A DNA stretch of 64,000 bases from Fibrobacter sp. (GCA_012515615.1 JAAYYB010000308.1:7761-71760); one strand, 5' to 3'; shown: positions 39,120 to 56,618, numbered from the stretch's first letter. The notes: generated from the letters alone by a model not told the origin. Made by a program: numbers and translations.

Positions 39120-39442
39120 GGGGCCTCCTGAGGGGGGACATGGACTGAATGGACGGAATGGACGGAATGGACGCCGGAGACATCAGAGACAATGGCGGTT
39201 ATGGTTTTTTGACCCTGCGCGGATCTGTGTTTGTCGATTACAGCTATGATGCTGTCCCATTCCGACTGCAGAAAGTGGCCCTTAAGAGAATCATAAGAAG
39301 ACAGACCGACGCGCCTGTCTATCGGGTTGGAACTTGTCATGAGATAGACAAGAAGAGCCAGGTCCATATACCTGTAGTGGTTCCAGTGCCAGGCCTGCTT
39401 TGCGGGGTATCCGCCGATTGTGAGATTCATATTATTATTCAT
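39107..39442 (-). CDS. Hypothetical early protein (C-terminus runs through the 9-bp repeats)
   Basis: 111 aa. The SVHSVHSVHSVH tail is the translation of the repeat array. Confidence 0.4.
   Translation of the reverse strand: MNNNMNLTIGGYPAKQAWHWNHYRYMDLALLVYLMTSSNPIDRRVGLSSYDSLKGHFLQSEWDSIIAVIDKHRSAQGQKTITAIVSDVSGVHSVHSVHSVHVPPQEAPCTH
39139..39174 (+). repeat. ATGGACNNN tandem array (4 units, 9-bp period)
   Basis: ATGGACTGA ATGGACGGA ATGGACGGA ATGGACGCC. Confidence 0.9.
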
Positions 39443-39451
39443 TTAAAGTGC

Positions 39452-40069
39452 CTATAAATACTTTGTAAAGTCTGTTTCAATGGTCAGATCCGGCATGATG
39501 AAGGTCTCGTTCATGCAGGCTCCGACACGGTTGATTTTCAGAGAGAACCGTTCGCTCATTGCTTTAATATCCCTGTCTATTTGGGCAACAAGACTACCAG
39601 GGAGAGTTTTCCCGCCTCCCCGATGGTCCTCATTTATGGTAAGTCCGGAAAAACCTTTGCTGTAGAGCCGGTCGATCAAGGCGGGCTGCAGTCTGTGTGC
39701 CATTACTCCACCGTAAACCTTCGTTTTACAATGTAATGCGGATGGTATTTCATACAGGCTGTCGTGAATGGATAAAACGATAGATGAAAACTGCCCTGCA
39801 GCCGGAGAGTCGAGAATACCGGAGTTAGAGGTGGCTAAATGTACCTGGTCGAAAATTGCCCGGGCGGCGCCTGTTATCATAAAGAAGAGCGGGTGCAATG
39901 TAGGCTCGCCGCCGGTGAGCATAACCGCACTGTGCCCGTCAATCCGCATGCTCCTGAGAACCGAGAGAATTCTAACCAGACTGTCAGATTCTCTGAAATC
40001 TCTGAGTTTACTGGTGATGCAGTACGGACAGTCGTTGTAGCATTTTGCTGTCAATATGTATTTCAGCAC
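39452..40069 (-). CDS. Small radical-SAM enzyme
   Basis: 205 aa with the CX3CX2C cluster KCYNDCPYC at residues 10-17 and the SAM-binding-type motif MLTGGEPTLHP. It is embedded in the Mu-type early operon next to Gam. Confidence 0.75.
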   Translation of the reverse strand: MLKYILTAKCYNDCPYCITSKLRDFRESDSLVRILSVLRSMRIDGHSAVMLTGGEPTLHPLFFMITGAARAIFDQVHLATSNSGILDSPAAGQFSSIVLSIHDSLYEIPSALHCKTKVYGGVMAHRLQPALIDRLYSKGFSGLTINEDHRGGGKTLPGSLVAQIDRDIKAMSERFSLKINRVGACMNETFIMPDLTIETDFTKYL

Positions 40070-40596
40070 TTTTCCTCCCCGACCGTTTCCGCCTCTTCAG
40101 CCTTGAGGAGAGCCTTCACCAGTTTGTCAACAGAACTGTCGGTTGCCTTTATAACAACCTGATCGCCGGTTTCAGATACAGAGACGCCCAGCCATTTGAG
40201 TTCCTGAACAGAGAGGTTTTCAAGAGCGCCCTTGACCGGTTTCTCGGTGGTTTTGACAAGAGTATCGAACTGGTCCGGAAAGTGTTTGCGGATGAGTTTC
40301 ACCACCTGGGCGTCATCATCCCACTCGATAGCCCCTTTACCTTTCTGGAAACCGACCTTTATACCATGAAAGACAACCGTTCTGGGTTTTACAAACAGAT
40401 CGGCCGAGTCCTCAACTGCAGAGTGAAGGAAGCTCCGTTTCTGGGAGACCGCGGCCACCGCTTTTTTGATGCCTGGAAGGAGCCTTCTTTTAGCCGCCTC
40501 TATTTCATCGTTGAGGTTCTGAACTCTCTCGACCAGAACATTTCTGGCATCGGAGAAATCTTTTGTCAATGCTTCAATTTCGGAAAGTGTGAACAT
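40063..40596 (-). CDS. gam: Gam-like host-nuclease inhibitor protein
   Basis: 177 aa with an N-terminal coiled coil, then KPRTVVFHGIKVGFQKGKGAIEW...VVKLIRKHF, matching the Mu Gam layout. Confidence 0.6.
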   Translation of the reverse strand: MFTLSEIEALTKDFSDARNVLVERVQNLNDEIEAAKRRLLPGIKKAVAAVSQKRSFLHSAVEDSADLFVKPRTVVFHGIKVGFQKGKGAIEWDDDAQVVKLIRKHFPDQFDTLVKTTEKPVKGALENLSVQELKWLGVSVSETGDQVVIKATDSSVDKLVKALLKAEEAETVGEEKC

Positions 40597-41096
40597 CAGG
40601 AATTCTCCTTATGTAATTGTGAACGTTTCATGCTCTCAATAGCTGTCTTGATTTTGCGGACATGCAGGGGTTCCAGCCATTCAGGTTTTGACACTCCTGT
40701 TATCCTGGTGATGAATTTCTCATAGGCATAATGCCTGGAGCGCGGATCGGGAGCGAATGACACATCCGCCCACATCGCTTCAAGCATCCGGAGCTGAGCG
40801 GGAGAGGCCATCCCGGGGCGTTTGCCGAGATCGTCATATTTTTTGGGCCGGCAGGAAGAGAGAGGCGCCCGGCCAGGCGCCTCTACGGATCTGTGCACGC
40901 CGGCGGCGGTGGCCATTTCGGAAAGGCGGCGGATCAGCTCGTTTGCCTTCTGGAAGGTCAGCTTTTTGGATGATGGACGGACATTGACAGGGAAGGTCCC
41001 GAAGGACGCAATCATTGCCCTGTAGTCATCATCGGGGATCCTCAGGAGATGAGCCAGTGTATGTATGCGTTTAACCTGTGAGGGTTGTGCATTCAT
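40596..41096 (-). CDS. gemA: GemA/gp16-like protein (DUF1018)
   Basis: It has two repeats of the I/L-H-x-L...DD-YR / QLRMLEAMW type, joined by a linker that carries a GC palindrome copy. Confidence 0.65.
   Translation of the reverse strand: MNAQPSQVKRIHTLAHLLRIPDDDYRAMIASFGTFPVNVRPSSKKLTFQKANELIRRLSEMATAAGVHRSVEAPGRAPLSSCRPKKYDDLGKRPGMASPAQLRMLEAMWADVSFAPDPRSRHYAYEKFITRITGVSKPEWLEPLHVRKIKTAIESMKRSQLHKENS
40861..40884. repeat. GC palindrome family, copy 2 (in the GemA-like CDS)
   Basis: AGAGGCGCCCGGCCAGGCGCCTCT followed by ACGGA. Translated as SVEAPGRAPLSS. Confidence 0.85.
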
Positions 41097-41236
41097 GGCC
41101 TGGACCCCCTGATCCAGATTTCTTTTCCGGTTCTGGTTTTTTTGATCTGTCCACAGGCAATCAGGCGCTTACGCTTGTGATCGTAAAGCCTTTTTGCCTG
41201 GGCAGTGCGGGGATCGATATCGTTTGAAATGATCAT
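41092..41236 (-). CDS. Possible 47-aa ORF between MuB and GemA
   Basis: It has an ATG with a GAGG SD 11 nt after the MuB stop, and its stop overlaps the GemA start (ATGA). It is below the ORF-track size cut-off. Confidence 0.3.
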
Positions 41237-41246
41237 GTTTACCGCC

Positions 41247-42134
41247 TCAGATAATGAGTGATTTTGACGATTCCAGGACTATATCGGGAGTGATTGCACA
41301 GTTATTGATTTCCGCGACACGCTGCGACCTGCGGATCAGTTTTGACAGGACGCGAGTATTACTGTTTGACGCTTCGTGGAAGGTCCTATGGATTCCGTTA
41401 CTCCCGGGAAGAAGCGATGAAACGATCTGTTCCGTATCGACAGATGTCAGCGGCTGCAGGTTCGCGGCGATACCGATACGGGAGTAGATCTGCGCGAACT
41501 CGCCTTTTTTACCACGCAGGTTCGATATGAGCCGTCTCATACCGCAGAACAGGATACCGACACCGGCCTTATCGTGAACGCGTCTTATCAACTCAAGGGC
41601 CCGCAGGGGAAGGTTTTCCGCTTCATCTATTATGATGAGACGGCCGGAATTCTCCATCCTTTTTACGATATCGGTAAACAGGTCGTGAAGCCGCCCGCGG
41701 CCATCACCGATCCCCGATCTCTGATGGAGTTCCGAGAACAGATCCTTGGCGGTATACCCGGCATCGGCCTCGATGAGAATCGTATCACTGTTACGCCTGG
41801 CGTATTCCTTGACAGCCTCGGTTTTTCCGAGTCCGGCATCACCGTAAGCGGCACCCATCTCTCCGTCAAGGTGACAGATCCGCGCAGTCTCGAAGACTTT
41901 TCTGGCTACAGATGTCATTATGAATTTCACCTTAAGCCTCGGAGCCTGTTTCCGTTCCTGCCACCGTTCCAGCAGCTGCTTAACGGACGCATCCATTTTT
42001 GCTTTATCGCCTCTGAATGTGTCGCTCAGATATTGACTGATATAGCCCGGAGAAATCCCCAGAGCTCTTGACACTGCGCTCTGCGGTGTTCCTGTTGAAT
42101 CGAGGTACTGTCTTAACTCATTTCTTACACTCAT
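41247..42134 (-). CDS. MuB-like AAA+ transposition ATPase
   Basis: 295 aa with an N-terminal HTH (QSAVSRALGISPGYISQY), Walker A GDAGLGKT and Walker B LIIIDEAENL. It lies immediately downstream of the transposase. Confidence 0.8.
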   Translation of the reverse strand: MSVRNELRQYLDSTGTPQSAVSRALGISPGYISQYLSDTFRGDKAKMDASVKQLLERWQERKQAPRLKVKFIMTSVARKVFETARICHLDGEMGAAYGDAGLGKTEAVKEYARRNSDTILIEADAGYTAKDLFSELHQRSGIGDGRGRLHDLFTDIVKRMENSGRLIIIDEAENLPLRALELIRRVHDKAGVGILFCGMRRLISNLRGKKGEFAQIYSRIGIAANLQPLTSVDTEQIVSSLLPGSNGIHRTFHEASNSNTRVLSKLIRRSQRVAEINNCAITPDIVLESSKSLII

Positions 42135-42159
42135 ACATTCCTCCCGTTGAATGTTGAAG

Positions 42160-44166
42160 TTAACCCATTACGTCTTCTTTAGACGGTATATCTGACTCGA
42201 AAAGGTAAATTTCAGCCTTGCGGCGTTCCGGCGGCTGAAAAGATGACAGATCAGCGGTGTGTTCAGCCTGCATTTCACGATCTTTCTTTATTGCCTGGTC
42301 GATAAGAGTGTTCTGCACATGCAGAATTTTTGGTGAGGGGTCGATGTCCACCGCGAAGGCATCGGTACCGGTTTTCAGGTGAAAGAGCCGCTCCTGTGGT
42401 GTGGGCGCCTGTGAGACACTGGCGTAAGCCCGGGTGATTTTTCTGTCGCGGTTTTTGGCAGCCAGAGCGTCACGCAATTCTGATTTTTCGATTTCTGTTT
42501 CTGCTAACGCTGGAGCTACAAATTCGGCGATCCGCGCCTTTCCCAGGAGCTCATCTGTTCTGGCGTCATGAACCCAGGCCCGGGCATAGTCCTGCAGATC
42601 CCTGCGCAGATAAACTTTGACACCTTTCACTCCGGACATCCATTCAGCCCAGTATGTAACCTGCAGTTCGCTGTCTCTTATGCCGTTGCGGCCGATTGTT
42701 ACGATCCCGGATGTTCTCATGCAGAACAGACGCAGGCTGTCTTTGTCAACAAACCGTTTTTCCTTGAACTCTTCAGCCCAGGCTTCATCCGGAGAGCGCC
42801 CCTGGAGGTTTTTCCCCTTTGACACCATCCTGTTCCGTATTGTACGGATATAGCTATCAAAGAGAACGTCGAATTCATTGAAGGTGAGGATCTTTCCACT
42901 TTTGATCTCATCAGCCAGTATCTCCGGCCGCTCGGTCACATCACCGCCGCGATAACCAACCATGTGCTTCGAGAACAATTCTTTATTTTTCAGAAAATCC
43001 CGCTCGATCGGTTTGGTCTGGGCGTTATACGGCTGGGCAAAACGCGGAGAAACACCGATAACATGCAGCATGCCATTGGCCTTGACCTCATCGACTGTGA
43101 CTTTGACACGTCGAACGCGGCCACCGGCGAAATCGCGGCAGCGGTAGTCTTTTCCGTTGTCAAGAAGCACTTTCTGCGGTAAGCCGTGCTCCAGCGCAGC
43201 TAAATAAAAGGAGTAGAAAATGTGATCACTGTTTGGAGCCTCTGCATGCACATACCATCCGAGCCATTTCCCTGTTTTAAAGTCTCGCCAGGCAGTTACC
43301 CAGGGAAAACACGCTTTTCCATCAGGGAGCATCACGGCAACATCGATCTGAGCATGGTCTGAAACCCATACAGCGCCCGCAGCTACATGCGCGTAGTCAC
43401 GGTCTACATAGGGTGCATATTTACGGTTGTGGGATGCGGCGCCGTAGCGAGCGTAGTGCTGAGCCTGTTCCGGGACTTCGTTATCGATCCACCGCAGGAA
43501 CGCTTTCACGCCAGGGAAATTGTCTTTTGTAATTGACGGATCAAGAGAGCGGGCATAGCCGAGTGTATAATACCAGCAGCTCTGAGCGGAGGGCGCTCCC
43601 TCTTTGAGGTAAACGGCCTTGTAGTACTCGCCCCATTCTTTTTTGACAGAACTGACGCCCTTGTTTTTACCATACTGAGCCAGGAGGCCGGAGATGCCGT
43701 GTTTTTTGTAGGTTTTACGGGCACCGGTGAGACAGGGGTAGGATGTCTGCAGGTCCGGAGTGTTTTCGTGCTCTTTATTCCATTGTATAAGGAAGTTGCG
43801 GAGCGCGCTTCCTTTGAGACCCTCTGTAGCCCTGAAGAGTGTCAGGTATTTATCGGCGCGCTTGCGTGCCCATTCGGGCGCGCGGGCATAAAGCTCGGCT
43901 TCAACCTCGGTTTCATCACAGTTTAAAAGCTCGTTATCCTGGCTTTGAAACTTGCTTGAAAAGTATTTCGCCCGGGTTTCCGGCGGGAGCGAAGAGAGGT
44001 TTATCTGGTACTGCTCTCCACCGGCTCCCTTTACAAGACGGGCATCATAGCGGCCGCTCTTGCAGTGATAGCAGACAGTACGGGACGGCAAACCGGTAAG
44101 ACCGGCAACCTCCCTGACTGTCAGCCAGGTGTCGTTTTGTGTGGAAAGGGAATTGTTGAGAAACAT
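42160..44166 (-). CDS. MuA-like DDE transposase
   Basis: 668 aa with an N-terminal HTH (WLTVREVAGLTGLPSRTV) and an rve-type core carrying Asp in VWVSDHAQIDV and LLDNGKDYR and Glu in KPIERDF. Confidence 0.85.
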   Translation of the reverse strand: MFLNNSLSTQNDTWLTVREVAGLTGLPSRTVCYHCKSGRYDARLVKGAGGEQYQINLSSLPPETRAKYFSSKFQSQDNELLNCDETEVEAELYARAPEWARKRADKYLTLFRATEGLKGSALRNFLIQWNKEHENTPDLQTSYPCLTGARKTYKKHGISGLLAQYGKNKGVSSVKKEWGEYYKAVYLKEGAPSAQSCWYYTLGYARSLDPSITKDNFPGVKAFLRWIDNEVPEQAQHYARYGAASHNRKYAPYVDRDYAHVAAGAVWVSDHAQIDVAVMLPDGKACFPWVTAWRDFKTGKWLGWYVHAEAPNSDHIFYSFYLAALEHGLPQKVLLDNGKDYRCRDFAGGRVRRVKVTVDEVKANGMLHVIGVSPRFAQPYNAQTKPIERDFLKNKELFSKHMVGYRGGDVTERPEILADEIKSGKILTFNEFDVLFDSYIRTIRNRMVSKGKNLQGRSPDEAWAEEFKEKRFVDKDSLRLFCMRTSGIVTIGRNGIRDSELQVTYWAEWMSGVKGVKVYLRRDLQDYARAWVHDARTDELLGKARIAEFVAPALAETEIEKSELRDALAAKNRDRKITRAYASVSQAPTPQERLFHLKTGTDAFAVDIDPSPKILHVQNTLIDQAIKKDREMQAEHTADLSSFQPPERRKAEIYLFESDIPSKEDVMG

Positions 44167-44196
44167 GAGCGCTCCGTGAAAAGAAAATTCTGTTTA

Positions 44197-44222
44197 ATGG
44201 ACAGAAATGGACTGACATGGAC
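44197..44222 (+). repeat. ATGGAC tandem array (3 units, 10-bp period) upstream of the transposase gene
   Basis: ATGGACAGAA ATGGACTGAC ATGGAC, 30-55 nt upstream of the MuA start. Confidence 0.85.
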
Positions 44223-44273
44223 GTATACTGACGAATGAGACTATTTTCTGCAGCAAAGATGATAGTGACAGTT

Positions 44274-44474: not shown

Positions 44475-44477
44475 GGT

Positions 44478-44836: not shown

Positions 44837-44838
44837 GT

Positions 44839-44991: not shown

Positions 44992-45014
44992 ATTTATCCC
45001 CTTCCTTTGAAGTG

Positions 45015-45083: not shown

Positions 45084-45160
45084 GGAAACTGTGGTATACT
45101 TATAAGAAGTTGAAAAGTTCTTATTTCCTGTTGTTGCCATATTTATTTTGTAACAGTGAT

Positions 45161-45376: not shown

Positions 45377-45461
45377 ATTTCTTCTCCATGAAGAATAAAT
45401 AACTTCAAATTGTTGTTATGATGTAAATATATCATCACTATGAAGAAAAAGCAACATAAAA

Positions 45462-45881
45462 ATGTTACTTGAAGAACTTTCATTCGAAAAAGTTTTTAAA
45501 AGGCTGAAAGACGTGCTAAGTATTATCAGGGATTCTGATATGGCACGTGCTATAGGGACTCAGCCTAATAAATTTGGTATGTGGAAATCACGTAATTTTT
45601 TACCACTGGAATTAATTAACGAGGTTTGTAAGAATAATAGAATTTCCATCAATTATGTTCTTTATGGACAGGGGCCGCAAAAAATACCAGACTCAGATAG
45701 TTCACCACTTTCACTTGAGGAGAAAGTGGAATTATTCACAGTGCAGAAAAAATTACTGCAATTATTCGTCGAGAAAAGTGAACAATTGAGGGCTGCGCTG
45801 CCACCAATATCTGACAAACTACAAGCTGAAATGAATTTATTAAAACGTGCTGCAGAATTGCTTGAAAAGAATTTATCTTAA
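45462..45881 (+). CDS. CI-type phage repressor (Phage_CI_repr-like N-terminal domain)
   Basis: 139 aa. FKRLKDVL...MARAIGTQPNKFGMWKSRNFLPLELINEVCKNNRISINYVLYGQG matches the CI-repressor HTH pattern. It is divergent from the ner-A-B genes. Confidence 0.75.
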   Translation: MLLEELSFEKVFKRLKDVLSIIRDSDMARAIGTQPNKFGMWKSRNFLPLELINEVCKNNRISINYVLYGQGPQKIPDSDSSPLSLEEKVELFTVQKKLLQLFVEKSEQLRAALPPISDKLQAEMNLLKRAAELLEKNLS

Positions 45882-45913
45882 TAGTGATGTAATTACACTA
45901 ACAAAGGGGGTTT

Positions 45914-46980: not shown

Positions 46981-47025
46981 CAGAATGTTCTTATTCTGGA
47001 ATTACCTGAGATGTCAAAGACCTAC

Positions 47026-47074
47026 CGCGGATTAGTTACCGCAGATTGAGCGGATTACGCTGATTGCGCGGATT
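47026..47074 (+). repeat. CGCGGATTA-type tandem array (5 units)
   Basis: CGCGGATTA..CGCAGATTG AGCGGATTA CGCTGATTG CGCGGATTC. It overlaps the 3' end of the 47055-47339 ORF. Confidence 0.75.
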
Positions 47075-47339
47075 CCTGAGCTGCGGGTTTATCAAACTTT
47101 GAAACGCCATCACCTGCGTACTGTATTACTTTCCCCAGCCTCATCCTTGCATCTTCGAGATGTCTGAGTGCCAGGTCCATATTGGAAAACATCTCACTAT
47201 GCTGACCCGGAAATGCCTCTTTGTTATCGAGTTCAACATGATGGCATTGCAGATCCCTGCGGATCGCAGTCACCATATTGCCGCACTGTTCGCGCAGCGA
47301 GTCGCAGATTTGTGTAATAGTTTTCGGATGCATAAACAT
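47055..47339 (-). CDS. Hypothetical small protein immediately downstream of G
   Basis: 94 aa with the ...DLALRHLEDARMRLGKVIQ helix motif seen in many small phage proteins. Confidence 0.5.
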   Translation of the reverse strand: MFMHPKTITQICDSLREQCGNMVTAIRRDLQCHHVELDNKEAFPGQHSEMFSNMDLALRHLEDARMRLGKVIQYAGDGVSKFDKPAAQESAQSA

Positions 47340-47351
47340 CTCCTTTGTTTG

Positions 47352-47975
47352 CTATCTAAAATTGTCGCCCTGAGATAGAATCAGGTACCTTTTTACCGAG
47401 TCGTTAATTTCCTCTTTAGCATCAACGGTGAGCACCATGAAGGGCCTGGGAGGGAGGCTGATTTCGTGTGCTTTTGCCGTGTAGTCGCGCTCGACAACAC
47501 GTTTGTGATGAGCCTTTGCAAAGACAGATAAATTGAGCAGCCGTCCGCTCTCACCCTGCCGCAGGAGCACGCCGTAGCGGTCGGTGCGCAGCCTGGCAAC
47601 GCCTTTACGGGCAGGAATCTTTATCGGGTTATTTCCGGTACCGAAGTTCTGCGCGGCCGCATAAGCTTTGTTTGTGGTTACCTTCGCGCTCTCCTTATCG
47701 TAGTCGGAAGCCAGGGACGCGGCCAGTTCGCCTCTTTGCTGGAGGATCTTGCCGGGCCAGTAACCTTTGCGTTCCCGTTCCTTGATCGTTCGTTTCTTCA
47801 GTTTCGGCCAGGGATCGGGACGTCCCTCCTGTTCGAAATTCTCCTCAACGCAGTCGAGCATGATCCCGGAGATCCGCCGCATGACAGGGGTCATGTCCTC
47901 GACGCGGGAAACGAGCTCCCGGAGACCATCCATGATTTCCTGGTCGTTCTGGGTAATGAAAATTGGATCGCTCAT
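47352..47975 (-). CDS. Virion morphogenesis protein (Mu gpG family)
   Basis: 207 aa. MRRISGIMLDCVEENFEQEGRPDPWPKLKKRTIKERERKG...ILQQRGELAASL fits the gpG/Phage_tail_S pattern. Confidence 0.8.
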   Translation of the reverse strand: MSDPIFITQNDQEIMDGLRELVSRVEDMTPVMRRISGIMLDCVEENFEQEGRPDPWPKLKKRTIKERERKGYWPGKILQQRGELAASLASDYDKESAKVTTNKAYAAAQNFGTGNNPIKIPARKGVARLRTDRYGVLLRQGESGRLLNLSVFAKAHHKRVVERDYTAKAHEISLPPRPFMVLTVDAKEEINDSVKRYLILSQGDNFR

Positions 47976-47993
47976 TGCAGCTCCAGGGAGAGT

Positions 47994-48026
47994 ATGGACG
48001 GAATGGACTGTATGGACGGAATGGAC
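47994..48026 (+). repeat. ATGGACNNN tandem array (4 units, 9 bp)
   Basis: ATGGACGGA ATGGACTGT ATGGACGGA ATGGAC. It lies between the G start and the -35 of the 48042 promoter. Confidence 0.9.
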
Positions 48027-48041
48027 AACAGATGAGAATAT

Positions 48042-48070
48042 TTGACAAACTGCTTAAAATTTCGTATTAT
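48042..48070 (+). promoter_or_regulatory. Near-consensus sigma-70-type promoter
   Basis: TTGACA (48042-48047), an exactly 17-nt spacer, then TATTAT (48065-48070). GGAAAGGAG SD and the ATG at 48091 follow. Confidence 0.6.
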
Positions 48071-48090
48071 ATGGGAAAGGAGTGAAAGGT

Positions 48091-48288
48091 ATGACAGATA
48101 CGACAGAGAAACTGGAACAGGCTGTGCAGGAGTACATGAAACAGCATCCCAACGCTGACAGCCCGCTGTGCCTTCTTGCGGATCTTGGAGACGAAGGTCT
48201 CTTGAAAGTTTTGAAAAAGGCCAACGGCCGGGAGATAGTGTTTGAAGACACTGACGGCCTCGATGAAATAAAGTGGAAGTTTCTTTAA
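48091..48288 (+). CDS. Small acidic protein, oriented against the flanking MuF and G genes
   Basis: 65 aa (MTDTTEKLEQAVQEYMKQHP...), rich in D/E, with its own promoter and SD. The track start is the GTG at 48082. Its stop overlaps the MuF stop region. Confidence 0.55.
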   Translation: MTDTTEKLEQAVQEYMKQHPNADSPLCLLADLGDEGLLKVLKKANGREIVFEDTDGLDEIKWKFL

Positions 48289-49778
48289 TCACCGAAAACC
48301 TCCTTCCCGTAAGTTCGCATCGCCTTTGCCGTTTGAGGAAGCATCTTCTCCAGGAACGGATTCCCTCTGAAATACAGTTCCAGCGTGTGTGAATGAAATT
48401 CATGCCTGGGATTGTCTGCGCTTTTGCGCCAGTAACTTTTCGTGTGGCCATCACCGTATTTCCCGCTGCTCAGACTGCACACAGTATCACTGAATGACAG
48501 ATACATCTTGTGGGCATCAGTTTCAGGGGCTTTGAGATTGAGAGAATCGAGCATCTCTCTGCGGTGCTGGAAGTAATTCCCGGGCAGCAGCTTTTCCCTG
48601 ACGCTCTTGTCGAGCGCACCGAGCTCCGAAACGGCTGTATCCCAGACCTTGTTGAATTTCGAGAGCAGCTCCGGTGTTTTCAGGACATTCTTTTCAAAGA
48701 ACGCATGAGCGTATTCGTGAATGGTTGTCCACTCCTTCACGAATCCGGACCTGGTTGACCTGAATCCCAGGTGAACAGTATCTGATGCCGGGCGGTAGAA
48801 AGATCTGGAATCCCTGCCCTTTACAAAAGGAACCTTGCGTTCCATCCTGTCCCAGAATGAATCCGGCAGAACATCTTTACCCACTTCCTTTTCGAGGTTA
48901 TCCGGAATAAAGACACTTTTAAGCGGAGCCTTTTTCCCCAGGTCTTTTTTTACTGCCGCGGCAATATCGCTGTCGTATTTCGACCAGTCGGGCTGCCATT
49001 TGGCTTTCCCCGGGTTATAGTTCCATCCGGGGTCCGGAGCAATTTTTTTACCGGTGGCCGGATCGGTGTAGACTGTAACCTCTTCCATAAGGCCGGTAGT
49101 CTTTGACACCAGGCGATCCTCTTTTGAGAGGGTGCCGCCTGAAGAGACGCCCGGCCGGGGGTCTGTACTTGACAGAGTAAGAGAGCGGTCCTGAAGGTTT
49201 CTGCTGTTAAGAGAACGGACACGGCACCGGCAGTTGAATGCCAGGGGCGGATAGAAAGAATCCCAGAAAGGATCGTTTATGGGAAACACCTTTCCGTTAA
49301 GCGCAGCGTGCTGGGGGCGTGTCCGGGAGTCGAGCACGGCCACATACTGAAGGTACGGGCGGTCGGAGGCGTTATCAACCTGATCTTTCCACCGTCCGGC
49401 CATATACGCTGACTGCATGTTTGTGCGGTAGATGGTTTTAAGCCTTGACACAGAGCCGAGCTGCACCGCGGTTGCCTGCCCGGATTGATCCCCGAGCCAC
49501 TGCTTCCCCCACCATCCCATTGCTTTCAGGCGCGGTTCCAGTTCTTTACGGAACTGCTCGAATGTGAGTCCCTCATTGAGTGCCTTGTCAACAGCCCTGC
49601 GGATCTCAGTAAGGATATCGGCTCTCGCCGCTTTAGCGACCGTAAACGCATGCGCGTGGGCCTCCTGCCAGGTATCGTACCAGTTCCAGGAGATTGCATA
49701 CCCCTTGGAGCGGAAATAATCCACAGCCTGGTGAGGAGGGAGACCGATAGCGAATGAGAGATCGACAGGTGATGACAT
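48285..49778 (-). CDS. MuF/SPP1-gp7-family head morphogenesis protein with a C-terminal HExxH extension
   Basis: 497 aa. The MuF core has YRTNMQSAYMAGRW...RTRPQHAALNGKVF...FNCRCRV. The roughly 190-aa extension contains TIHEYAHAFF. Confidence 0.85.
   Translation of the reverse strand: MSSPVDLSFAIGLPPHQAVDYFRSKGYAISWNWYDTWQEAHAHAFTVAKAARADILTEIRRAVDKALNEGLTFEQFRKELEPRLKAMGWWGKQWLGDQSGQATAVQLGSVSRLKTIYRTNMQSAYMAGRWKDQVDNASDRPYLQYVAVLDSRTRPQHAALNGKVFPINDPFWDSFYPPLAFNCRCRVRSLNSRNLQDRSLTLSSTDPRPGVSSGGTLSKEDRLVSKTTGLMEEVTVYTDPATGKKIAPDPGWNYNPGKAKWQPDWSKYDSDIAAAVKKDLGKKAPLKSVFIPDNLEKEVGKDVLPDSFWDRMERKVPFVKGRDSRSFYRPASDTVHLGFRSTRSGFVKEWTTIHEYAHAFFEKNVLKTPELLSKFNKVWDTAVSELGALDKSVREKLLPGNYFQHRREMLDSLNLKAPETDAHKMYLSFSDTVCSLSSGKYGDGHTKSYWRKSADNPRHEFHSHTLELYFRGNPFLEKMLPQTAKAMRTYGKEVFGD
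49143..49168. repeat. GC palindrome family, copy 3 (decayed, in the MuF CDS)
   Basis: AGAGACGCCCGGCCGGGGGTCTGTAC. It is read in a different frame (TDPRPGVSS) and sits at the core/extension junction. Confidence 0.7.
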
Positions 49779-49785
49779 TTTTCCG

Positions 49786-51294
49786 TTACTGCTTTCCGTT
49801 CAGGCGTCCCCAGATTTCACTGACAAATTTTGCCCTTGCGAGCATGGTCACCATCTGCTCGTCATCCATGTCGGGATACTGTGACACGAGATGCCGTTTG
49901 ACATCGTCGACTGATTTTCCTTTCGCAAAGAGAGAAATGACGGGTTTAAGGAGGCCCTCGGCCTGGTTCTGCAGGTCGGGGTCGGGGATGTCGGAGATTG
50001 CCTGATCGAGGAGATCCTGATCGGGGAATCGGCCGGAACCGGATGATAGAGACGCCCGGCCGGGCGTCTCTACGGAATGGGCGGGGGCGGCGAATTGGGA
50101 ATCGGGCGCCGGCGGATTGGATGTATCAATATCGCCGTCTTCGAAATTATAGGCGCGTTTGTAATATTCAGGTGTAAATTTGAGGCCGGTATCTGACAAG
50201 ATTTTGTCACGCTCGGCAAGGTCCTTATCGACGTCTTCTTCTTCCCACATTGACCAGACGGGACGGGCGCCCTGGAAGTTGAGGTCCCAGATCCAGGTGA
50301 TAAGCTGATTTACAGTGTTTTCAACGATTCTTTTATCGGCGTTTACGATGTCTTTACGCACCTGTATTGCGGCATCCTCACCGCCCAGTTTTCCGGCGGT
50401 GCTTGTCACCGCACCTTCATGGCCGAGCTGGACAATAGAGACCTCTTCCTTGCAGAACCGCAGGAGCCGCTCGTAAATATCTGCACTTGCGCCTTTTCCT
50501 TCTGATTCCAGAAGTTCAACTGAGGAATCGTTGGGTATGACCGCGATGGCATCCTGGATCATCTTTTCGAGACCATCGAGCAGCAGATCCTGTTCATCAT
50601 CGGAGGCAGAACGCGGGGTCTTCCCAACCGCAAAGGGCATCCCGTATTTCTCTGAAAATGTCACCCAGAATTTCAGTCCGCCTTTCTTAAATGTAGTGGG
50701 CCAGAAACAGGCGCTGAGGTCCGGAAAACCGTAAGGGTTCCTGTAGGTTGCCTCCTGGCGCGGGTTGAGAAATTTCTTATCCGGGAGTTCCTCTCCGGTC
50801 AAGCTTCCAGGCACGCGGAGACGGAGCGTATTCTCCTGGTCGTAGCAGAACCATTCCTGGGGTTTGCCGGTGATACGTGCGGGCAGAATCATGTTCCCCA
50901 CACGTTCCCAGATTATTTCGAGCACGGCGTACCCGAACTGTCCGGCATCGAGGATTTCCCCGATCAGAGTATGCAGGTCAAGATTGTCAAACAGGGAAAC
51001 GAGTTCCTTTGTCTGACGGCTGCGGGATTTTCCGCGGTCGATACCGGACTCAAGCTGCAGTACTCCTGATTTGCGATTGCGGATACATCCGCGCAGATGC
51101 GGATCAGTCTGCAGTTCCCGGTAGACATCGATGTCTTTCCCCATTCTTTTAAGAACAGGGTCGGGGTTAGGGAGATACATCCCGGACCAGAGAAAATCCA
51201 TCCTGCGGCGGGTGGCTATTTCGGCGGAGAGATTTTTCGTTATCGGGACGAAAGTGCTGTTATCGAGCCAGAGACCTTTTTGATTCATGGTCAA
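49786..51294 (-). CDS. Portal protein (Mu gp29 / DUF935 type)
   Basis: 502 aa. The position between terminase and MuF and the overall pattern fit DUF935 portals. Confidence 0.8.
   Translation of the reverse strand: MTMNQKGLWLDNSTFVPITKNLSAEIATRRRMDFLWSGMYLPNPDPVLKRMGKDIDVYRELQTDPHLRGCIRNRKSGVLQLESGIDRGKSRSRQTKELVSLFDNLDLHTLIGEILDAGQFGYAVLEIIWERVGNMILPARITGKPQEWFCYDQENTLRLRVPGSLTGEELPDKKFLNPRQEATYRNPYGFPDLSACFWPTTFKKGGLKFWVTFSEKYGMPFAVGKTPRSASDDEQDLLLDGLEKMIQDAIAVIPNDSSVELLESEGKGASADIYERLLRFCKEEVSIVQLGHEGAVTSTAGKLGGEDAAIQVRKDIVNADKRIVENTVNQLITWIWDLNFQGARPVWSMWEEEDVDKDLAERDKILSDTGLKFTPEYYKRAYNFEDGDIDTSNPPAPDSQFAAPAHSVETPGRASLSSGSGRFPDQDLLDQAISDIPDPDLQNQAEGLLKPVISLFAKGKSVDDVKRHLVSQYPDMDDEQMVTMLARAKFVSEIWGRLNGKQ
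50048..50076. repeat. GC palindrome family, copy 4 (perfect, in the portal CDS)
   Basis: AGAGACGCCCGGCCGGGCGTCTCT followed by ACGGA. Translated as SVETPGRASLSS. Confidence 0.9.
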
Positions 51295-52871
51295 TATCCT
51301 TTAATAATGGAAACACGGTTCTTGCGCGGGCGGCTTTTTACCCGCACCGGTCCGGCGTTTGATTTTGCTGCCATCTCTGCCAGGCAGTAGGCCCACCAGT
51401 GATCGGCGTGCCCTGTCGCATCGGTGGCATCGGCATCGTAGCGGTTATTCCCCCCCACAACCATTTTTCGTATTGAATGGAAAGAGTCCCTGATTGTCTG
51501 GTCCGGAGGAATACGGGAGCGGCGGTCTTCGAGCGCGTTTTTGCCATCAACGGCCAGTTCCTCTTTTGTCGCAGAGGTGAAATTCACACCCTCTGTCATG
51601 TACTCCCCGTACTTCTCCTGAGCCTGTTCGACAAGTGGTATTCCCATTCCTGTCCGGTCAATGCACACCCGTCTCATCCGTTTCAGTTTCATAACTCTGT
51701 CAAGGTACTCCATCTGAATTTTGAACCGAGTATTTGAGAATGCTTTGACATGGCGTGTGTAACGTACATCACCAAGTTTCTGCACAATCCAGAGAACAGA
51801 AAAGTGCCTCGTTCTGGCGATATCCCATCCGGCGTACAGGTCACCTTCCTGGAGCATGTTGAGCTGCTCCAGAGTCATGAGAAGATTTTCCGATTCGGCA
51901 AGGTAGATCATTTCGTAGGGGACAAACGCAGTCGCGGCATCGACGGCAATACAGCAGTACTCCTCATTCCAGACATCCTCGCTGCGGCAGTCCTCGTATT
52001 CCCTGAGAAGCCATTCGACCCGTTCATCTTCGGAGAGTGCTTTCCCGCAGATCTTGTCCGCGACGCCATCAATGACGGCATCGAAGATCGTAACGGTATG
52101 CAGAGACCAGCTTACCTTCCCAGCTTTTGCATCCTGGACAAACCGGTAGTACAGGCACTGCTGGCCGTGATGAGTTGAAAGGATACGAATCGGGTAGCCC
52201 CACATGGCTGAAGGCTTAGCGGCTTTCCACATCCCAGCCTGGTCATCATGCCACGCGAATTCATCGAGGACCACTTTCCCGCCCTTGGAGCGGAAGCGTT
52301 TGGGGTTGCTTGTCAGAGCATAGATTTTGCCACCGTTTGAGAACTCAATTCCCAGGGCGGTAATTTTCTTGTCGGAATCCAGGACAACTTCACCGAGAGC
52401 CTTTGCCCCGATGTTAAACATCTTTGCCCACTGGCCGCAGTAGTCTATATATTCTTTTGCCGCGGATTCATCAGCGGATGTAAAGTACACTTTCCGCACG
52501 GGTCTTCCGGGCGTGTATTCCTTCTTAAGAACTATATCGCGTACATCTTCGAAGGACTGAACATAGGTCGCACCGATACGGCGGGATTTTTCCCAGACCT
52601 TGATTCGGGAGTCATCGGCGAGCCATCGGAGCTGGTAGCCGAGAAAGTATTTGTCTGCTTTTTGGGAGGCGTGAGACGCCCGGCCGGATGAGAGAGACGC
52701 CCGGCCGGATGAGAGAGGCGCCCGGCCGGGCGCCTCTACGGAATTGCGGATCCCGGAAATGCGTTTTGCGGAGGCGCGCAGCGCAAGGCGGAATTCCTGG
52801 CGCCTGTCGGAAGCCGGAGACGTCCCGTCGGGTGTCTGTACGGTTGAGAGTTCAGTCGCTGTCGCTGTCAT
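51291..52871 (-). CDS. Terminase large subunit (Mu gp28-like)
   Basis: 526 aa, upstream of the portal with an overlapping stop/start. It has an N-terminal ATPase region (KSRRIGATYV) and a C-terminal nuclease-like region. Confidence 0.75.
   Translation of the reverse strand: MTATATELSTVQTPDGTSPASDRRQEFRLALRASAKRISGIRNSVEAPGRAPLSSGRASLSSGRASHASQKADKYFLGYQLRWLADDSRIKVWEKSRRIGATYVQSFEDVRDIVLKKEYTPGRPVRKVYFTSADESAAKEYIDYCGQWAKMFNIGAKALGEVVLDSDKKITALGIEFSNGGKIYALTSNPKRFRSKGGKVVLDEFAWHDDQAGMWKAAKPSAMWGYPIRILSTHHGQQCLYYRFVQDAKAGKVSWSLHTVTIFDAVIDGVADKICGKALSEDERVEWLLREYEDCRSEDVWNEEYCCIAVDAATAFVPYEMIYLAESENLLMTLEQLNMLQEGDLYAGWDIARTRHFSVLWIVQKLGDVRYTRHVKAFSNTRFKIQMEYLDRVMKLKRMRRVCIDRTGMGIPLVEQAQEKYGEYMTEGVNFTSATKEELAVDGKNALEDRRSRIPPDQTIRDSFHSIRKMVVGGNNRYDADATDATGHADHWWAYCLAEMAAKSNAGPVRVKSRPRKNRVSIIKGY
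52672..52742. repeat. GC palindrome family, copy 5, with a 21-bp tandem triplication of the left arm
   Basis: GAGACGCCCGGCCGG ATGAGAGAGACGCCCGGCCGG ATGAGAGAGGCGCCCGGCCGGGCGCCTCT ACGGA. Translated as SVEAPGRAPLSSGRASLSSGRAS. Confidence 0.9.
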
Positions 52872-53302
52872 CCGGGAATACCCAGTACGTCACGCTGTAT
52901 GAGTTTAACAATATCTTCGGGAACTGTCCCGGAAGATCCTGCCGGCTTTTCCGCGTTTTTAACCGCGTCCTCGTAATCTTTTACTTTTGCGATATTGGGA
53001 AGCAGTTTTCCCAGGGTGAAATATCTTCCCGGGCTGACAGGTTTTCCTGCGAGCTCATCCTCTTTTATTGACCTCATGAGCCATCGGGTGAACTCATAGA
53101 GTTCCTCATGAAAAGCGGTACGGGATGCCCGGTACTGGGAGCGCAGAGTATCCCAGTCGTTTCCCTCTTTATGAGCCTCTTCTTTCCAGTTGCGAATGGT
53201 TCTTTCTCCGCATTTGAGGCGTGAGGCGATCTCGCCTATCGTGCACTGTTCATGCGTAAAGAGTCTCTGAGCTTCCGCATAGAGGGCGTCTTTTTTAGCC
53301 AT
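52868..53302 (-). CDS. Terminase small subunit candidate (DUF1804 / Mu gp27-like)
   Basis: MAKKDALYAEAQRLF..CTIGEIASRLKCGERTIRNWKEEA has an HTH. The ATG at 53302 is preferred. Its stop overlaps the terminase large subunit start. Confidence 0.65.
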   Translation of the reverse strand: MAKKDALYAEAQRLFTHEQCTIGEIASRLKCGERTIRNWKEEAHKEGNDWDTLRSQYRASRTAFHEELYEFTRWLMRSIKEDELAGKPVSPGRYFTLGKLLPNIAKVKDYEDAVKNAEKPAGSSGTVPEDIVKLIQRDVLGIPG

Positions 53303-53555
53303 TGAGGTCTTTCTCCAGCCTGTCAATAGTCTCTTTACGTTTCCGCATTTCCACCCAGAGATTGTACAGACGGTCCATCGCTGCTTTCGCCTGGTCAACT
53401 GACAAATCGGTAATGTCGGAAATGTATGGATTGAGGAAATTTCTCACGACAGTTTCATTGGCGTGAGCTTCGAGCTGCTCCGCATTGAATTTCTGTTTCA
53501 GTTCCGCGAGCTGACCCTTGAAGACGGCAAGTTCGTGGTTGAATTCCGGAGTCAT
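53295..53555 (-). CDS. Hypothetical coiled-coil protein
   Basis: 86 aa, in series in the packaging operon. Confidence 0.4.
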   Translation of the reverse strand: MTPEFNHELAVFKGQLAELKQKFNAEQLEAHANETVVRNFLNPYISDITDLSVDQAKAAMDRLYNLWVEMRKRKETIDRLEKDLNG

Positions 53556-53869
53556 GATTTGTTGTCCTTCCGCATGAGGGGACAGAAGAGGTTGTTATCG
53601 ATTTTGGTAGAGAGGGAGGAGATAGCGCCTGCAACGTAGTCGTTACTTTCGATAAGCTGCTTGAGCAGCTCAAAATTCTGCTGTTCCCTTTTTGACTGTT
53701 CGTCAAGAATTGATTTCTGTGATGTGAGCAGGTCCACATAGCGCTGATCGTGAGTCTTGAATATCTGCAGACAAAAGCGAAGAGTGATCAGCCATATCAC
53801 GAATACCAGTGCCGAGAACCCTACCATCTTTGTCAGCTCCGGTATAATCTCCAATGTAATTCCGTCCAA
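53552..53869 (-). CDS. Membrane-anchored coiled-coil protein (first gene of the packaging operon)
   Basis: 105 aa with the TM VGFSALVFVIWLITLRFCL followed by a coiled coil. Confidence 0.45.
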   Translation of the reverse strand: MDGITLEIIPELTKMVGFSALVFVIWLITLRFCLQIFKTHDQRYVDLLTSQKSILDEQSKREQQNFELLKQLIESNDYVAGAISSLSTKIDNNLFCPLMRKDNKS

Positions 53870-53925
53870 ATGCCGCCCCCTTGTTCAAGGATATTTTTTA
53901 ATCTGCTTTTCGTTTCCGGTTTTAC

Positions 53926-53951
53926 GCGGGAGGGCGCCGTTACCCTCCCGC
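53926..53951. other. Strong GC hairpin in the divergent late control region
   Basis: GCGGGAGGG-CGCCGTTA-CCCTCCCGC. There is no flanking T-tract. Confidence 0.4.
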
Positions 53952-54090
53952 CAGCCCATTTATCATCATTCTTAACACCTGCATCAGATATTCATGACCA
54001 CCTCCTTATCGTTCGGCAAACACAGTTACCATTGGTTCGCACTTCGTGTAAAACAAGCTACCCAGATTATAAATGGTGAAATAGTATAAA

Positions 54091-54140
54091 GTCTTGTGCG
54101 GTTCCGCACTGCGATATCGCACTGCGGAACCGCACAAGAC
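54091..54140. promoter_or_regulatory. 50-bp near-perfect palindrome (24/25 arms, no spacer) between the divergent late operons
   Basis: GTCTTGTGCGGTTCCGCACTGCGAT|ATCGCACTGCGGAACCGCACAAGAC. Confidence 0.5.
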
Positions 54141-54317
54141 ATTGCAGTAATAATGTTGTAAATTATCCTCATGAGTAAAAAGAGCCCGAAAGGGACATTG
54201 AAATCAGTCTGCAGAGCGGCATCGGTTGCCGGGGCGGTGTGCCTGGTGTCGGGTTTACAACCGGTACCAGCAGAGTACAAGACACCGGGTTTGAGAGATA
54301 GTCGGGGGCGGACCGGT

Positions 54318-54332
54318 ATGGACAAAATGGAA
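54318..54332 (+). repeat. ATGGAC/ATGGAA pair (9-bp period) upstream of the protease/scaffold gene
   Basis: ATGGACAAA ATGGAA, about 70-85 nt upstream of the ATG at 54401. Confidence 0.6.
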
Positions 54333-54400
54333 GAGTGTGCCGAGCGTGTGGAGACTGTATGCATTCGTAAACATGTAAAGTTGACAAGAAGGGGGAAGAA

Positions 54401-55540: not shown

Positions 55541-55615
55541 GAAAATCAGGAAACAGCAGGCAGAACCGGAAAAATTAACAAACAATAACACGACACTATC
55601 AGGAGGAAAATTCGA

Positions 55616-56551
55616 ATGGGAGACAGGTTAAACAATATCAGAGTGATAGACCCGGTACTTACCACTATCGCGCTGGGGTATTCAAACGCGGATGCGGTTG
55701 GAGACTTTCTGGCGCCCTATGTGCCGGTTGCCCTTGAGTCAGGGAAGATTCCCTCTTTCGGTAAAGAGGCGTTCAAACTTTACAATACGACAAGGGCAAT
55801 CAGGGCGGCATCAAACCGGATGAATCCGGAGGGGATTCAAATGATCCCGTATGCAATCGAAGAACACGATTTGGAATACCCTATTGACTACAGGGAAGAT
55901 ACTGAATCGATGTTCAATATGCAGAAGCTCGGTACCAGGACATTGCAGGGGATCTTCGCTGTTGAACGCGAGAAGCAGATCGCGGATATCGCCCAGGCTG
56001 CGGCAACCTACGGTGACGGGAATAAAGTGAAGCTGACCGGAAATGATAAGTGGTCGGATTACACACCCGGGCACAGCAACCCTAACGTTGATGTCGATGC
56101 AGGCCGCGAAGCGGTAAGGGCCAGAACAGGTAAATACCCGAATGTAGGTGTTATCGGACCGACCGCTTTCTCAAAAGCAAAGAGACACCCGGAAGTGCTC
56201 GCCCGTTTCCAATTCACTGGAAAGATTACTGTCACGGCTGCAATGCTGGCAGAGCTGTGGGAGATCGATCACCTGTATGTGGGCAAGATGGTTTATGCGG
56301 ATGACGCAGATGTATTCCATGATATCTGGGCTGACAACGTGGTACTTGGCTATGTGCCGCAGACCAGCTCTACGGACCGTGATGTTTACGAGCCGTCGTT
56401 TGCTTACACAATCCGCAAAAAGAGCCTGCCACAGGTTGATGTAAGAACTGAAAACGGGGGAAAGCTCATATTGGTCCGCAATACAGACTGTTTTGCGGCG
56501 AAGGTTCTTGGAGCCGATGCAGGGTATCTGATTGAGGATACCAACGCCTAA
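55616..56551 (+). CDS. Major capsid protein (family not resolved)
   Basis: 311 aa. The position after the protease/scaffold gene and the size are typical of HK97-fold/E-like capsid proteins. Confidence 0.7.
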   Translation: MGDRLNNIRVIDPVLTTIALGYSNADAVGDFLAPYVPVALESGKIPSFGKEAFKLYNTTRAIRAASNRMNPEGIQMIPYAIEEHDLEYPIDYREDTESMFNMQKLGTRTLQGIFAVEREKQIADIAQAAATYGDGNKVKLTGNDKWSDYTPGHSNPNVDVDAGREAVRARTGKYPNVGVIGPTAFSKAKRHPEVLARFQFTGKITVTAAMLAELWEIDHLYVGKMVYADDADVFHDIWADNVVLGYVPQTSSTDRDVYEPSFAYTIRKKSLPQVDVRTENGGKLILVRNTDCFAAKVLGADAGYLIEDTNA

Positions 56552-56590
56552 CCGCGGATAGATCCGGATACCGCGGATAACGCGGGATCC
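56552..56590 (+). repeat. CGCGGATA-type tandem array (4 units, about 10 bp)
   Basis: CCGCGGATA GATCCGGATA CCGCGGATAA CGCGGGATCC, directly after the capsid stop. Confidence 0.7.
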
Positions 56591-56594
56591 GGAA

Positions 56595-56618
56595 ATGGAC
56601 TGTATGGACAGAATGGAC
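56595..56618 (+). repeat. ATGGACNNN tandem array (3 units, 9 bp)
   Basis: ATGGACTGT ATGGACAGA ATGGAC, immediately 5' of the AAGGAGG SD of the 56631 gene. Confidence 0.9.

Follow-up and report, generated by a model that had tools for sequence, protein, structure and literature searches.

Our analysis shows that a transposable prophage in a 64,000-nucleotide stretch of Fibrobacter sp. DNA (GCA_012515615.1 JAAYYB010000308.1:7761-71760; hereafter the window, with positions counted from its first letter) carries short tandem arrays of the hexamer ATGGAC at five gene junctions, all of them on the same DNA strand whatever the direction of the adjacent genes. The arrays are real, their strand constancy was reproduced in one independent phage, and none of the families that we tested explains them. 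We tentatively read them as iteron-like clusters of putative protein-binding sites on double-stranded DNA, which could form a dispersed operator or roadblock network; the layout of the sequence suggests this reading, and we hold it as a working choice and not as an expectation.

Arrays at five gene junctions

The arrays are spread over 39.1-56.6 kb of the window, at the following positions:

39140-39172, + strand: four ATGGAC units, 9-bp period, spacers TGA, GGA and GGA; 20 nt upstream of the GTG start of a gene of 107 amino acids (aa)
44197-44222, + strand: three exact ATGGAC units, 10-bp period, with in-phase ACTGAC and GAGAC extending to 44245; 31 nt upstream of the transposase ATG (44166, - strand)
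47994-48026, + strand: four ATGGAC units, 9-bp period, spacers GGA, TGT and GGA; 19 nt upstream of the gpG ATG (47975, - strand)
54318-54332, + strand: weak two-unit array, ATGGAC AAA ATGGAA (one exact and one 5/6 unit); 69 nt upstream of the protease/scaffold ATG
56595-56618, + strand: three ATGGAC units, 9-bp period, spacers TGT and AGA; abutting the ribosome-binding site AAAGGAGG of an 80-aa gene (56631-56873), with 13 nt to its start codon

A preliminary description of this DNA had named these five junctions. The arrays are present there, four of them solid and the one at 54318 weak, and the + strand holds for all five, two being sense and three antisense to the adjacent genes. Tandem Repeats Finder recovered four of the five independently. 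The 39140 array is trailed in phase by degenerate GGAGAC and AGAGAC units, to about 39190. On the opposite strand several arrays are crossed by short open reading frames (ORFs): that at 39140 lies in the 3' tail of ORF 39107-39442, reading VHSVHSVHSVH, a 27-codon - strand ORF with a GAGGAGG ribosome-binding site runs across the 44197 array, and a - strand ORF at 47972-48454 crosses the 47994 array and at its end overlaps the gpG start by ATGA.

Such arrays are not expected by chance. A two-unit pattern with at most two mismatches has 16 matches, against 5.3 +/- 2.1 in shuffled sequences, and none of 100 shuffles reached 16; by our own arithmetic, an exact three-unit array is expected about 2e-6 times per 64 kb. 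The hexamer by itself is not enriched, with 27 matches over the whole window against 32.5 expected. Outside the arrays it occurs seven times on the + strand and five times on the - strand, and the host DNA in the window (34.3 kb, a small sample) has four ATGGAC and one GTCCAT. Since the hexamer is neither enriched nor skewed outside the arrays, the + strand bias is a property of the arrays only, and simple over-representation, raised in the preliminary description as a possible source of the pattern, does not account for it in the window or its host part. Taken alone, five of five arrays on one strand has P = 1/16. There was no further array in the next 3.2-3.7 kb past the right end of the window.

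Variation within the arrays is narrowly confined. In the three arrays with a 9-bp period, none of the 11 hexamers varies, nor does the middle base (G) of any spacer; the six deviations from ATGGACGGA are all found at the first and third spacer positions, two of the nine positions of a unit. By our own arithmetic this confinement has P ~3e-5, a value inflated by ascertainment because the arrays had been recognised by their hexamers. Different arrays of the window have 15-mers in common, ATGGACGGAATGGAC and ATGGACTGTATGGAC among them. An exact copy of the 15-mer ATGGACAAAATGGAA, from the weak 54318 site, also stands at 30098-30112, in the host SprA gene of the type 9 secretion system (T9SS), which is probably a coincidence.

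Recurrence of the arrays in other genomes

The best support for arrays that follow the DNA strand, and not the genes, comes from a distant Mu-type contig, IMGVR_UViG_3300037608_000093 (loci L012, L552 and L566; G+C ~0.46), to which a scan for 10-bp arrays led. It encodes a 904-aa Mu transposase, a Mu portal, MuF, a Mu-like protease I and a capsid protein; its MuF is ~35% and its portal ~24% identical to the window proteins. Its four non-coding ATGGAC arrays (L012 3143, L552 2502, L552 6165 and L566 1420) all lie on one strand, assuming that its loci are given in contig orientation. The TerL-portal-MuF block runs opposite to the array strand, and the protease-capsid and transposase blocks run along it. 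The late blocks of L012 and L552 are divergent, as in the window, and two junctions are alike: a three-unit array at L012 3143-3166 lies 31 nt upstream of the Mu-like protease gene, a junction analogous to that at 54318, and another array stands antisense between TerL and portal, like the one between MuF and gpG in the window. By our own arithmetic, strand constancy in the two phages jointly has P ~1/128. One-strandedness beyond the window, which the preliminary description had implied, is borne out in this contig and fails in others, as L040, L117, L046 and many metagenome loci hold both orientations.

Arrays also occupy the same junctions in close relatives, where the preliminary description had proposed to look for them. 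We compared L121 (MuA 96% identical to that of the window), L122-L125 (84%) and L547/L548. The 39140 array has four units in L122 and L124 and three in L121, the indel in the latter being in frame; in a more divergent variant of the 107-aa gene junction the flanks have changed and the array is retained. The 44197 array is kept in L122-L125; its GTAT spacer is CTGC in the relatives, with flanks otherwise identical and both neighbouring hexamers kept. In L121 an insertion of ~160 bp (9799-9966, corresponding to window 44200/44201) splits the third unit of this array. The 47994 array is identical in L121 and L122, and contigs of four metagenome runs carry substitutions in its flanks and none in its interior. 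L547 and L548 retain both the weak pair at 54318 and the 56595 array, at which gene callers wrongly begin a 92-aa ORF on the first ATGGAC.

Because these close relatives are almost identical around the arrays, conservation alone says little. Synonymous and non-synonymous changes were counted among them for signs of hidden + strand ORFs at the antisense arrays, and there were too few substitutions. The idea that antisense arrays are really sense to such hidden ORFs was rejected on the true antisense cases in L250 and L552. Arrays as recombination breakpoints were also discarded: mosaic breaks among the window, L121 and L122 lie elsewhere, bar the one insertion in L121, which itself holds a TTGACA-type promoter-like stretch.

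A megablast of 38-58 kb against annotated phages gave no match. The closest cultured relatives are BcepMu and phiE255, with portals ~52% identical; no ATGGAC arrays were found in BcepMu, nor in 80 distant MuA relatives in Genome Taxonomy Database (GTDB) genomes, and a search for the MuA in IMG/VR by peptide patterns found none. The literature, searched in full text for the hexamer and for repeats of nonamers or of 9 bp, gave nothing relevant.

Exact scans with three- and four-unit patterns in IMG/VR, and with a four-unit pattern with NGN spacers in Joint Genome Institute (JGI) metagenomes, gave mostly coding repeats, collagen-like (GPD) or acidic (MDD). A subset of (ATGGAC-N3)n matches is clearly non-coding, being intergenic, with spacers that differ and stop codons among them. 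Phage contigs with Mu-like head genes and non-coding arrays include L020, L040, L057, L207/L219, L233 and L235, and their arrays often run straight into the ribosome-binding site. A contig with a lambda-type portal and an S49 protease (L065/L082/L250) has five arrays, all antisense to the late genes, and arrays were also found in phages with a gpA-type terminase. In bacterial intergenic DNA they adjoin genes for MatE, Lgt, a Protochlamydia-type outer membrane protein, HEAT-repeat and Gfo/Idh/MocA proteins; no relative of the window's phage proteins was found encoded at the bacterial array loci of the metagenomes. In one case (L001 4876-4908), a spacer of a type I-E-like CRISPR locus (repeat GTATTCCCCACGCACGTGGGGGTGAACCG) consists of exactly four ATGGAC-N3 units.

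Relative to genes, orientation is even elsewhere. Among ~70 solo arrays, viral and metagenomic, 20 are sense and 19 antisense to co-directional flanking genes, according to crude ORF-based gene calls. Where arrays form local inverted pairs, 21 of the 23 pairs are convergent, in the order ATGGAC(n)-loop-GTCCAT(n). Their spacers are complementary at just 45%, so the hexamers are kept and not a perfect hairpin. The convergent-pair loci, among them L262, L275, L283, L285, L339, L347 and L354, are bacterial and intergenic, some Chlamydiae-like and probably Planctomycetes-like. In 29 non-coding-looking arrays of other contigs the spacers are biased (G 62%, G 59%, non-C), with the consensus GGR. Metatranscriptome contigs have only the array in common, with unrelated flanks; these contigs are undirected and of low depth, and their ends at arrays are likely assembly breaks.

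Control scans temper these results. Two permuted hexamers of equal composition, AGTGAC and GATGCA, were searched in the same way in the viral contigs. At a 9-bp period they gave 54 and at least 119 loci, respectively, and at a 10-bp period 53 and 61 loci, against 28 for ATGGAC. Some control arrays likewise show diverged spacers and recur within a phage family. The claim that ATGGAC arrays are universal and special is weakened, because arbitrary hexamers yield as many arrays or more, above all at 10 bp. ATGGAC stands out in the heterogeneity of its spacers (42 of 81 arrays, against 12 of 49 and 19 of 113 control arrays), and in 9-bp arrays with at least four units and several (at least three) different spacers, of which it has ~15, against 3 and 0. 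We conclude that phage genomes in general carry phased hexamer arrays whose spacers diverge, and that ATGGAC-N3 is one type that recurs, without being a unique, universal signal. The abundance of such arrays for other words would follow if diverse DNA-binding proteins had cognate sites of this kind.

The prophage around the arrays

The element is a BcepMu-like transposable prophage of a Fibrobacterota (Fibrobacter/Chitinispirillales-like) bacterium from digester or wastewater metagenomes. Its features besides the arrays are as follows:

34339-34373: three GGGTTGGCAAA repeats, GGGTT(G/C)GCAAA, 11-12 bp apart, marking one prophage end at the host boundary
left of the Mor-like gene: amidase and lipase lysis genes
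38459-38848, - strand: Mor-like gene, preceded by the 107-aa gene
40063-40596, - strand: Gam-like gene
40596-41096, - strand: GemA
41247-42134, - strand: MuB-like ATPase
42160-44166, - strand: Mu-type transposase
45462-45881, + strand: CI-like repressor
53.4 to 47.35 kb, - strand: DUF1804 small terminase, TerL, Mu portal, MuF and gpG (gpG at 47352-47975)
48042-48070, + strand: strong sigma-70-like promoter, TTGACA-17-TATTAT, matching the consensus at 11 of 12 positions, better than any other site in 19.5 kb
48091-48288, + strand: acidic ORF of 65 aa, antisense within the terminase-to-gpG block, downstream of the promoter-like site at 48042
from 54.4 kb, + strand: protease/scaffold (start 54401), capsid and P2-like tail genes
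56563-56591, + strand: hairpin CCGGAT-a-CCGCG-gataa-CGCGG-g-ATCCGG, between the capsid stop codon and the 56595 array
56631-56873, + strand: 80-aa gene, after the capsid gene

The block from the small terminase to gpG (47000-54300) is inverted relative to the gene order of BcepMu (L253), which places gpG far from the protease gene and makes the late blocks divergent; the array in the inverted block is still on the same strand as the other window arrays. The promoters were sought with a sigma-70 consensus, from which the promoter type of the Fibrobacterota host may differ; within the reach of that scan, only the 47994 array adjoins a strong site, its end lying 16 bp upstream of the -35 element at 48042. 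This promoter-like site and the 65-aa ORF behind it are kept in L121 and L122, where gene callers also call the ORF; it had no family match. Together the two resemble a moron, that is, an independently transcribed accessory gene, at the MuF-gpG junction.

Other repeats accompany the arrays. The hairpin at 56563-56591, which Tandem Repeats Finder lists as a 9-bp CGCGGATAA repeat, is stable, and the fold z-score of -3.2 is owed to it and not to the neighbouring array. A second repeated word, (C)GCGGAT, also on the + strand, occurs at 47024-47075 and 56553-56590, the latter really being this hairpin. An 8-bp repeat, GTACGAGG, has ~7 copies at 58658-58710, inside a 93-aa ORF just ahead of the tail sheath gene, and a 21-bp repeat has 2.7 copies at 52673-52729, near the start of the large terminase gene. 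The repeats at 34339-34373, kept at the ends of L121 and L122, are probably transposase end-binding sites. In the divergent region between the terminase (-) and protease-capsid (+) blocks, a near-perfect 50-bp palindrome, GTCTTGTGCGGTTCCGCACTGCGAT followed by ATCGCACTGCGGAACCGCACAAGAC, at 54090-54140 likely either binds the late (Mor-like) activator or acts as a bidirectional control element. Finally, the only match of an ORF of 205 aa at 39452-40069 is to the N-terminal half of a radical SAM domain. The ORF is missing from L121, L122, L124 and some metatranscriptome contigs, which join 39437 to 40062, and by this sequence comparison it appears to be a recent insertion or moron in the early operon.

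Readings of the arrays and known systems

If the arrays are clusters of protein-binding sites on duplex DNA, a sequence-specific protein would place one subunit on each ATGGAC(nG) unit, with neighbours cooperating at a rise of 9-10 bp. The five junctions together would then make a dispersed network of operators or roadblocks that tunes or silences key lytic functions: the transposase, the operon of the Mor-like activator, gpG together with the promoter of the embedded 65-aa gene, the protease/scaffold and the post-capsid genes. Free gene orientation, a strict word, a fixed phase, partly free spacers and drifting copy number fit recognition in duplex DNA better than a single RNA motif. In agreement with this, unit number and spacers turn over in the relatives while the hexamers stay (three and four units, GTAT and CTGC), the same hexamer and phase occur in a Mu-type phage with a MuF of only ~35% identity, and the 47994 array lies near the strongest promoter-like site of the region. 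The spacer bias of the 29 arrays elsewhere, array RNA without predicted structure and the lack of an Rfam match also speak for it. Protein binding, the kind of binder and an effect on transcription are what we infer here.

Several observations weigh against such a network. The gap between the CI-like repressor and the early operon (45377-45461), where a primary operator would be expected, has no ATGGAC array and repeats ATGAAGAA instead. No RHH, AbrB, ParR-like or other suitable family was found among the small ORFs of the window with Pfam and PHROGs, whose profiles often miss such proteins, and all-against-all BLAST and phmmer comparisons of the ORFs of array-bearing contigs gave no small protein in common, only head genes. 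Four of the five arrays lie inside operons, 13-31 nt from a start codon, and not at recognisable promoters. At a 10-bp period, ATGGAC shows no excess over the controls (27 arrays, against 40 and 55). Phages that are unrelated and bacterial chromosomes that differ widely in G+C have the same hexamer, and this breadth is hard to explain, because one phage-encoded protein cannot easily account for it. The 9-bp period is also off the helical repeat and would force bound subunits into a spiral. The other ORF clusters shared among array-bearing contigs were rejected as binders, being translated repeats or abundant paralogues (Gfo/Idh/MocA oxidoreductases and tape-measure proteins).

The main rival to duplex-DNA binding is an action in RNA that depends on which strand is transcribed; we consider it unlikely. 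The leftward arrays would be C-rich, G-poor and unstructured (GUCCAUYCC)n stretches acting as rut-like attenuators that load Rho ahead of the transposase, the Mor operon and gpG, and those in a capsid-tail operon would kill antisense transcripts. The rightward arrays would be purine-rich (AUGGACGGR)n leaders at the ribosome-binding site, a single-stranded platform for a TRAP- or HutP-like regulator or for ribosomes. The distances of 13-31 nt to start codons suit this idea, as does the way in which arrays merge into the ribosome-binding site in many phage contigs, such as ATGGAC-GGGGAGAGG-tt-ATG in L097 and similar cases in L040, in L207 and at 56595 in the window. The GGR spacer consensus makes one strand purine-rich and the other C/U-rich, and by our own count the three - strand RNAs clearly have more C than G. 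Short - strand ORFs crossing the antisense arrays stop at or near the next start, and the 47994 and 54318 ORFs and the ORF upstream in L040 end in ATGA overlaps.

Array RNA is predicted to be unstructured (folding z between -0.4 and +0.5), which this rival would welcome. A cmscan of 34000-64000 against Rfam 15 (E <= 5) gave three chance-level matches, none at an array and with no capsid-downstream element, so no Rfam family supports it. Sense and antisense arrays are equally common, and no single RNA motif thus seems to be selected; nor does a rut site or a Shine-Dalgarno-like leader need exact conservation of a hexamer. The convergent pairs prefer the order ATGGAC...GUCCAU, in which the C-rich arm can pair with a G-rich arm that has already been made. 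The preliminary description had argued that the arrays are not a simple RNA leader, and this argument has gained strength from the mixed orientations (two sense and three antisense in the window, 20 and 19 elsewhere), from the lack of predicted RNA structure and from the recurrence of the pattern in the distant contig.

It is doubtful, but worth weighing, that the arrays are minisatellite-like repeats without a regulatory role, produced by slippage or gene conversion in tolerated gaps and dispensable ORF tails, and at most incidental homologies for module exchange. Copy number varies between three and four, L121 had a unit split by an insertion without loss of the phage, and arrays at different sites have 15-mers in common. 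Arrays of arbitrary hexamers are common in viral contigs, as the control counts at both periods show; BcepMu and the 80 MuA relatives manage without any, and the metatranscriptome contigs are alike only in the array. Yet slippage would not be expected to limit variation to two of nine positions, or to favour ATGGAC over the controls among four-unit arrays with at least three spacers (~15, against 3 and 0). Nor would it repeat both hexamer and phase at the corresponding junction of a phage whose proteins are only ~35% identical, or produce the 21:2 bias in the order of convergent pairs. Mosaic breakpoints among the window, L121 and L122 are away from the arrays, except for the one insertion.

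Strand constancy might itself be selected, with the arrays serving as a genome-polar DNA signal for a machine that travels along the genome: a Chi-like site, a polar barrier to replication or transcription, or a cue for packaging or ejection. We find this quite improbable. It would explain why five of five window arrays and four of four non-coding arrays of the distant contig are one-stranded in spite of gene blocks running both ways (the joint P of ~1/128), and why the block inverted relative to BcepMu keeps its array on the common strand. Other contigs with co-oriented arrays are L065/L082/L250 (five), L207 (three), L020 (two) and L233 (two). Nevertheless, L040, L117, L046 and many metagenome loci have both orientations as local convergent pairs, and the orientation to the late operon varies, being sense in L207 and L040 and antisense in L250. 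The arrays are confined to the left and middle of the prophage, and they occur in non-transposable phages and chromosomal intergenic DNA; the flanking host DNA lacks the enrichment or skew of the hexamer expected of a host Chi site. The one-strand claim for the distant contig also depends on the assumed orientation of loci from a single contig.

The link to transposition or packaging polarity made in the preliminary description fares poorly for similar reasons. Arrays occur in phages with a lambda-type portal or a gpA-type terminase and beside bacterial housekeeping genes, those of L250 are antisense to the whole late operon, local convergent pairs often replace co-oriented sets, and BcepMu and the 80 distant MuA relatives do without. 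In a broader form, (ATGGAC-N3)n would be an undescribed and widely distributed strand-specific signal, one-stranded in Mu-like phages and arranged in bacteria as convergent pairs that act as two-sided traps; this form seems to us a long shot.

Coding repeats, as MD(x) N-terminal extensions on the + strand or VHS/SIP repeat tails on the - strand, are hardly credible: gene callers do begin a 92-aa ORF at the 56595 array, bearing out the spurious MD starts foreseen in the preliminary description, they run ORFs of 104 to 112 aa through the 39140 array, and the L121 indel is in frame, but a 10-bp array cannot encode a repeat, some spacers are stop codons (TGA in the window, and elsewhere TAA and TAG), behind the 56595 array comes a canonical ribosome-binding site, and the encoded peptides change with orientation and frame.

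Returning to protein-binding arrays on duplex DNA, a network of tandem phased hexamers in Mu-like phages of Fibrobacterota would, if true, be a new layout of dispersed regulatory sites. Its new trait would be that one DNA strand is held whatever the gene direction, and the word recurs in other phages and between bacterial genes. Dispersed sites with genome-wide control are also found in the temperate phage phiC31, as conserved inverted repeats. The arrays offer a compact and testable handle, as 33-bp elements before the transposase, the late activator and head genes. They also mislead gene callers, through false MD starts and VHS tails, and can break short-read assemblies. If they are functionless, they warn that phased short repeats form a high background in viral metagenomes.

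Comparison with known systems separates poor fits from useful analogies. DnaA boxes, sigma-54 and sigma-70 hexamers, CsrA GGA sites, G-quadruplexes and type IIL/BREX sites were set aside as poor fits, by reasoning only. Unlike a Chi-like hotspot, ATGGAC is neither over-represented nor skewed (27 against 32.5 in the window; four against one in the small sample of 34.3 kb from the host). A rut site, for example lambda tR1, has no conserved word and no strict period. The leftward array transcripts resemble such sites in being unstructured, C-rich and G-poor and in lying at gene junctions of the early operon, but the window arrays are only 25-50 nt long and two of the five are purine-rich in the local mRNA. 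The targets of TRAP, (G/U)AG-N2-3, and of HutP, UAG-N4, consist of a short word with free spacers of fixed length in 3-11 copies, often at a ribosome-binding site, and act only as sense RNA. The window arrays share the short conserved word, the variable spacers of fixed length and the proximity to ribosome-binding sites; however, only those at 54318 and 56595 are sense, the other three being antisense, as are half of all arrays.

Among phage elements, the start-associated sequences (SAS) and extended SAS (ESAS) of Cluster K mycobacteriophages are conserved repeats that closely precede the start codons of some genes, with unknown function; the SAS consists of one motif, the ESAS has in addition an inverted repeat of 17 bp with a spacer, and nearly all have one orientation along co-directional genomes (PMC3203893). 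The window arrays are likewise repeated sequences just 5' of start codons, but they consist of hexamers in tandem and in phase, and three of the five stand antisense to the gene that they precede.

Two further systems come nearer. The omega (RHH) heptads of pSM19035-type plasmids and the ParR, ParG and TubR centromeres are made of 2-10 contiguous short repeats, direct or inverted, in a fixed phase off the helical repeat and at several loci per replicon; a small dimeric protein binds them cooperatively and winds round the DNA in a spiral. The omega units, of 7 bp and with no spacer, lie at plasmid promoters or centromeres. The window has three to four units at a 9- or 10-bp phase and five loci, with convergent pairs in other contigs. 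No RHH-type candidate came up in the prophage with profile searches, which often miss such proteins, and a single array stands beside a promoter-like site of the sigma-70 type scanned for.

Dispersed repeated sites provide genome-wide control in some temperate phages, such as L5. In Cluster A mycobacteriophages (L5, Bxb1), stoperators are dispersed asymmetric sites, mostly in short intergenic gaps within operons, at which the bound immunity repressor stops elongating RNA polymerase; they are single 13-bp sites, predominantly in one orientation to transcription, and the repressor also binds the early lytic promoter region (PMC9283540; PMC6550527). The five window sites are similarly dispersed over gene junctions. 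Unlike stoperators, they are tandem hexamer arrays with none at the repressor and early-promoter region, and they keep to one DNA strand whatever the gene direction, giving the mixed orientations found in the window and elsewhere. By likeness of layout, the closest working analogies would be the omega heptad and ParR iteron arrays together with the L5 stoperators.

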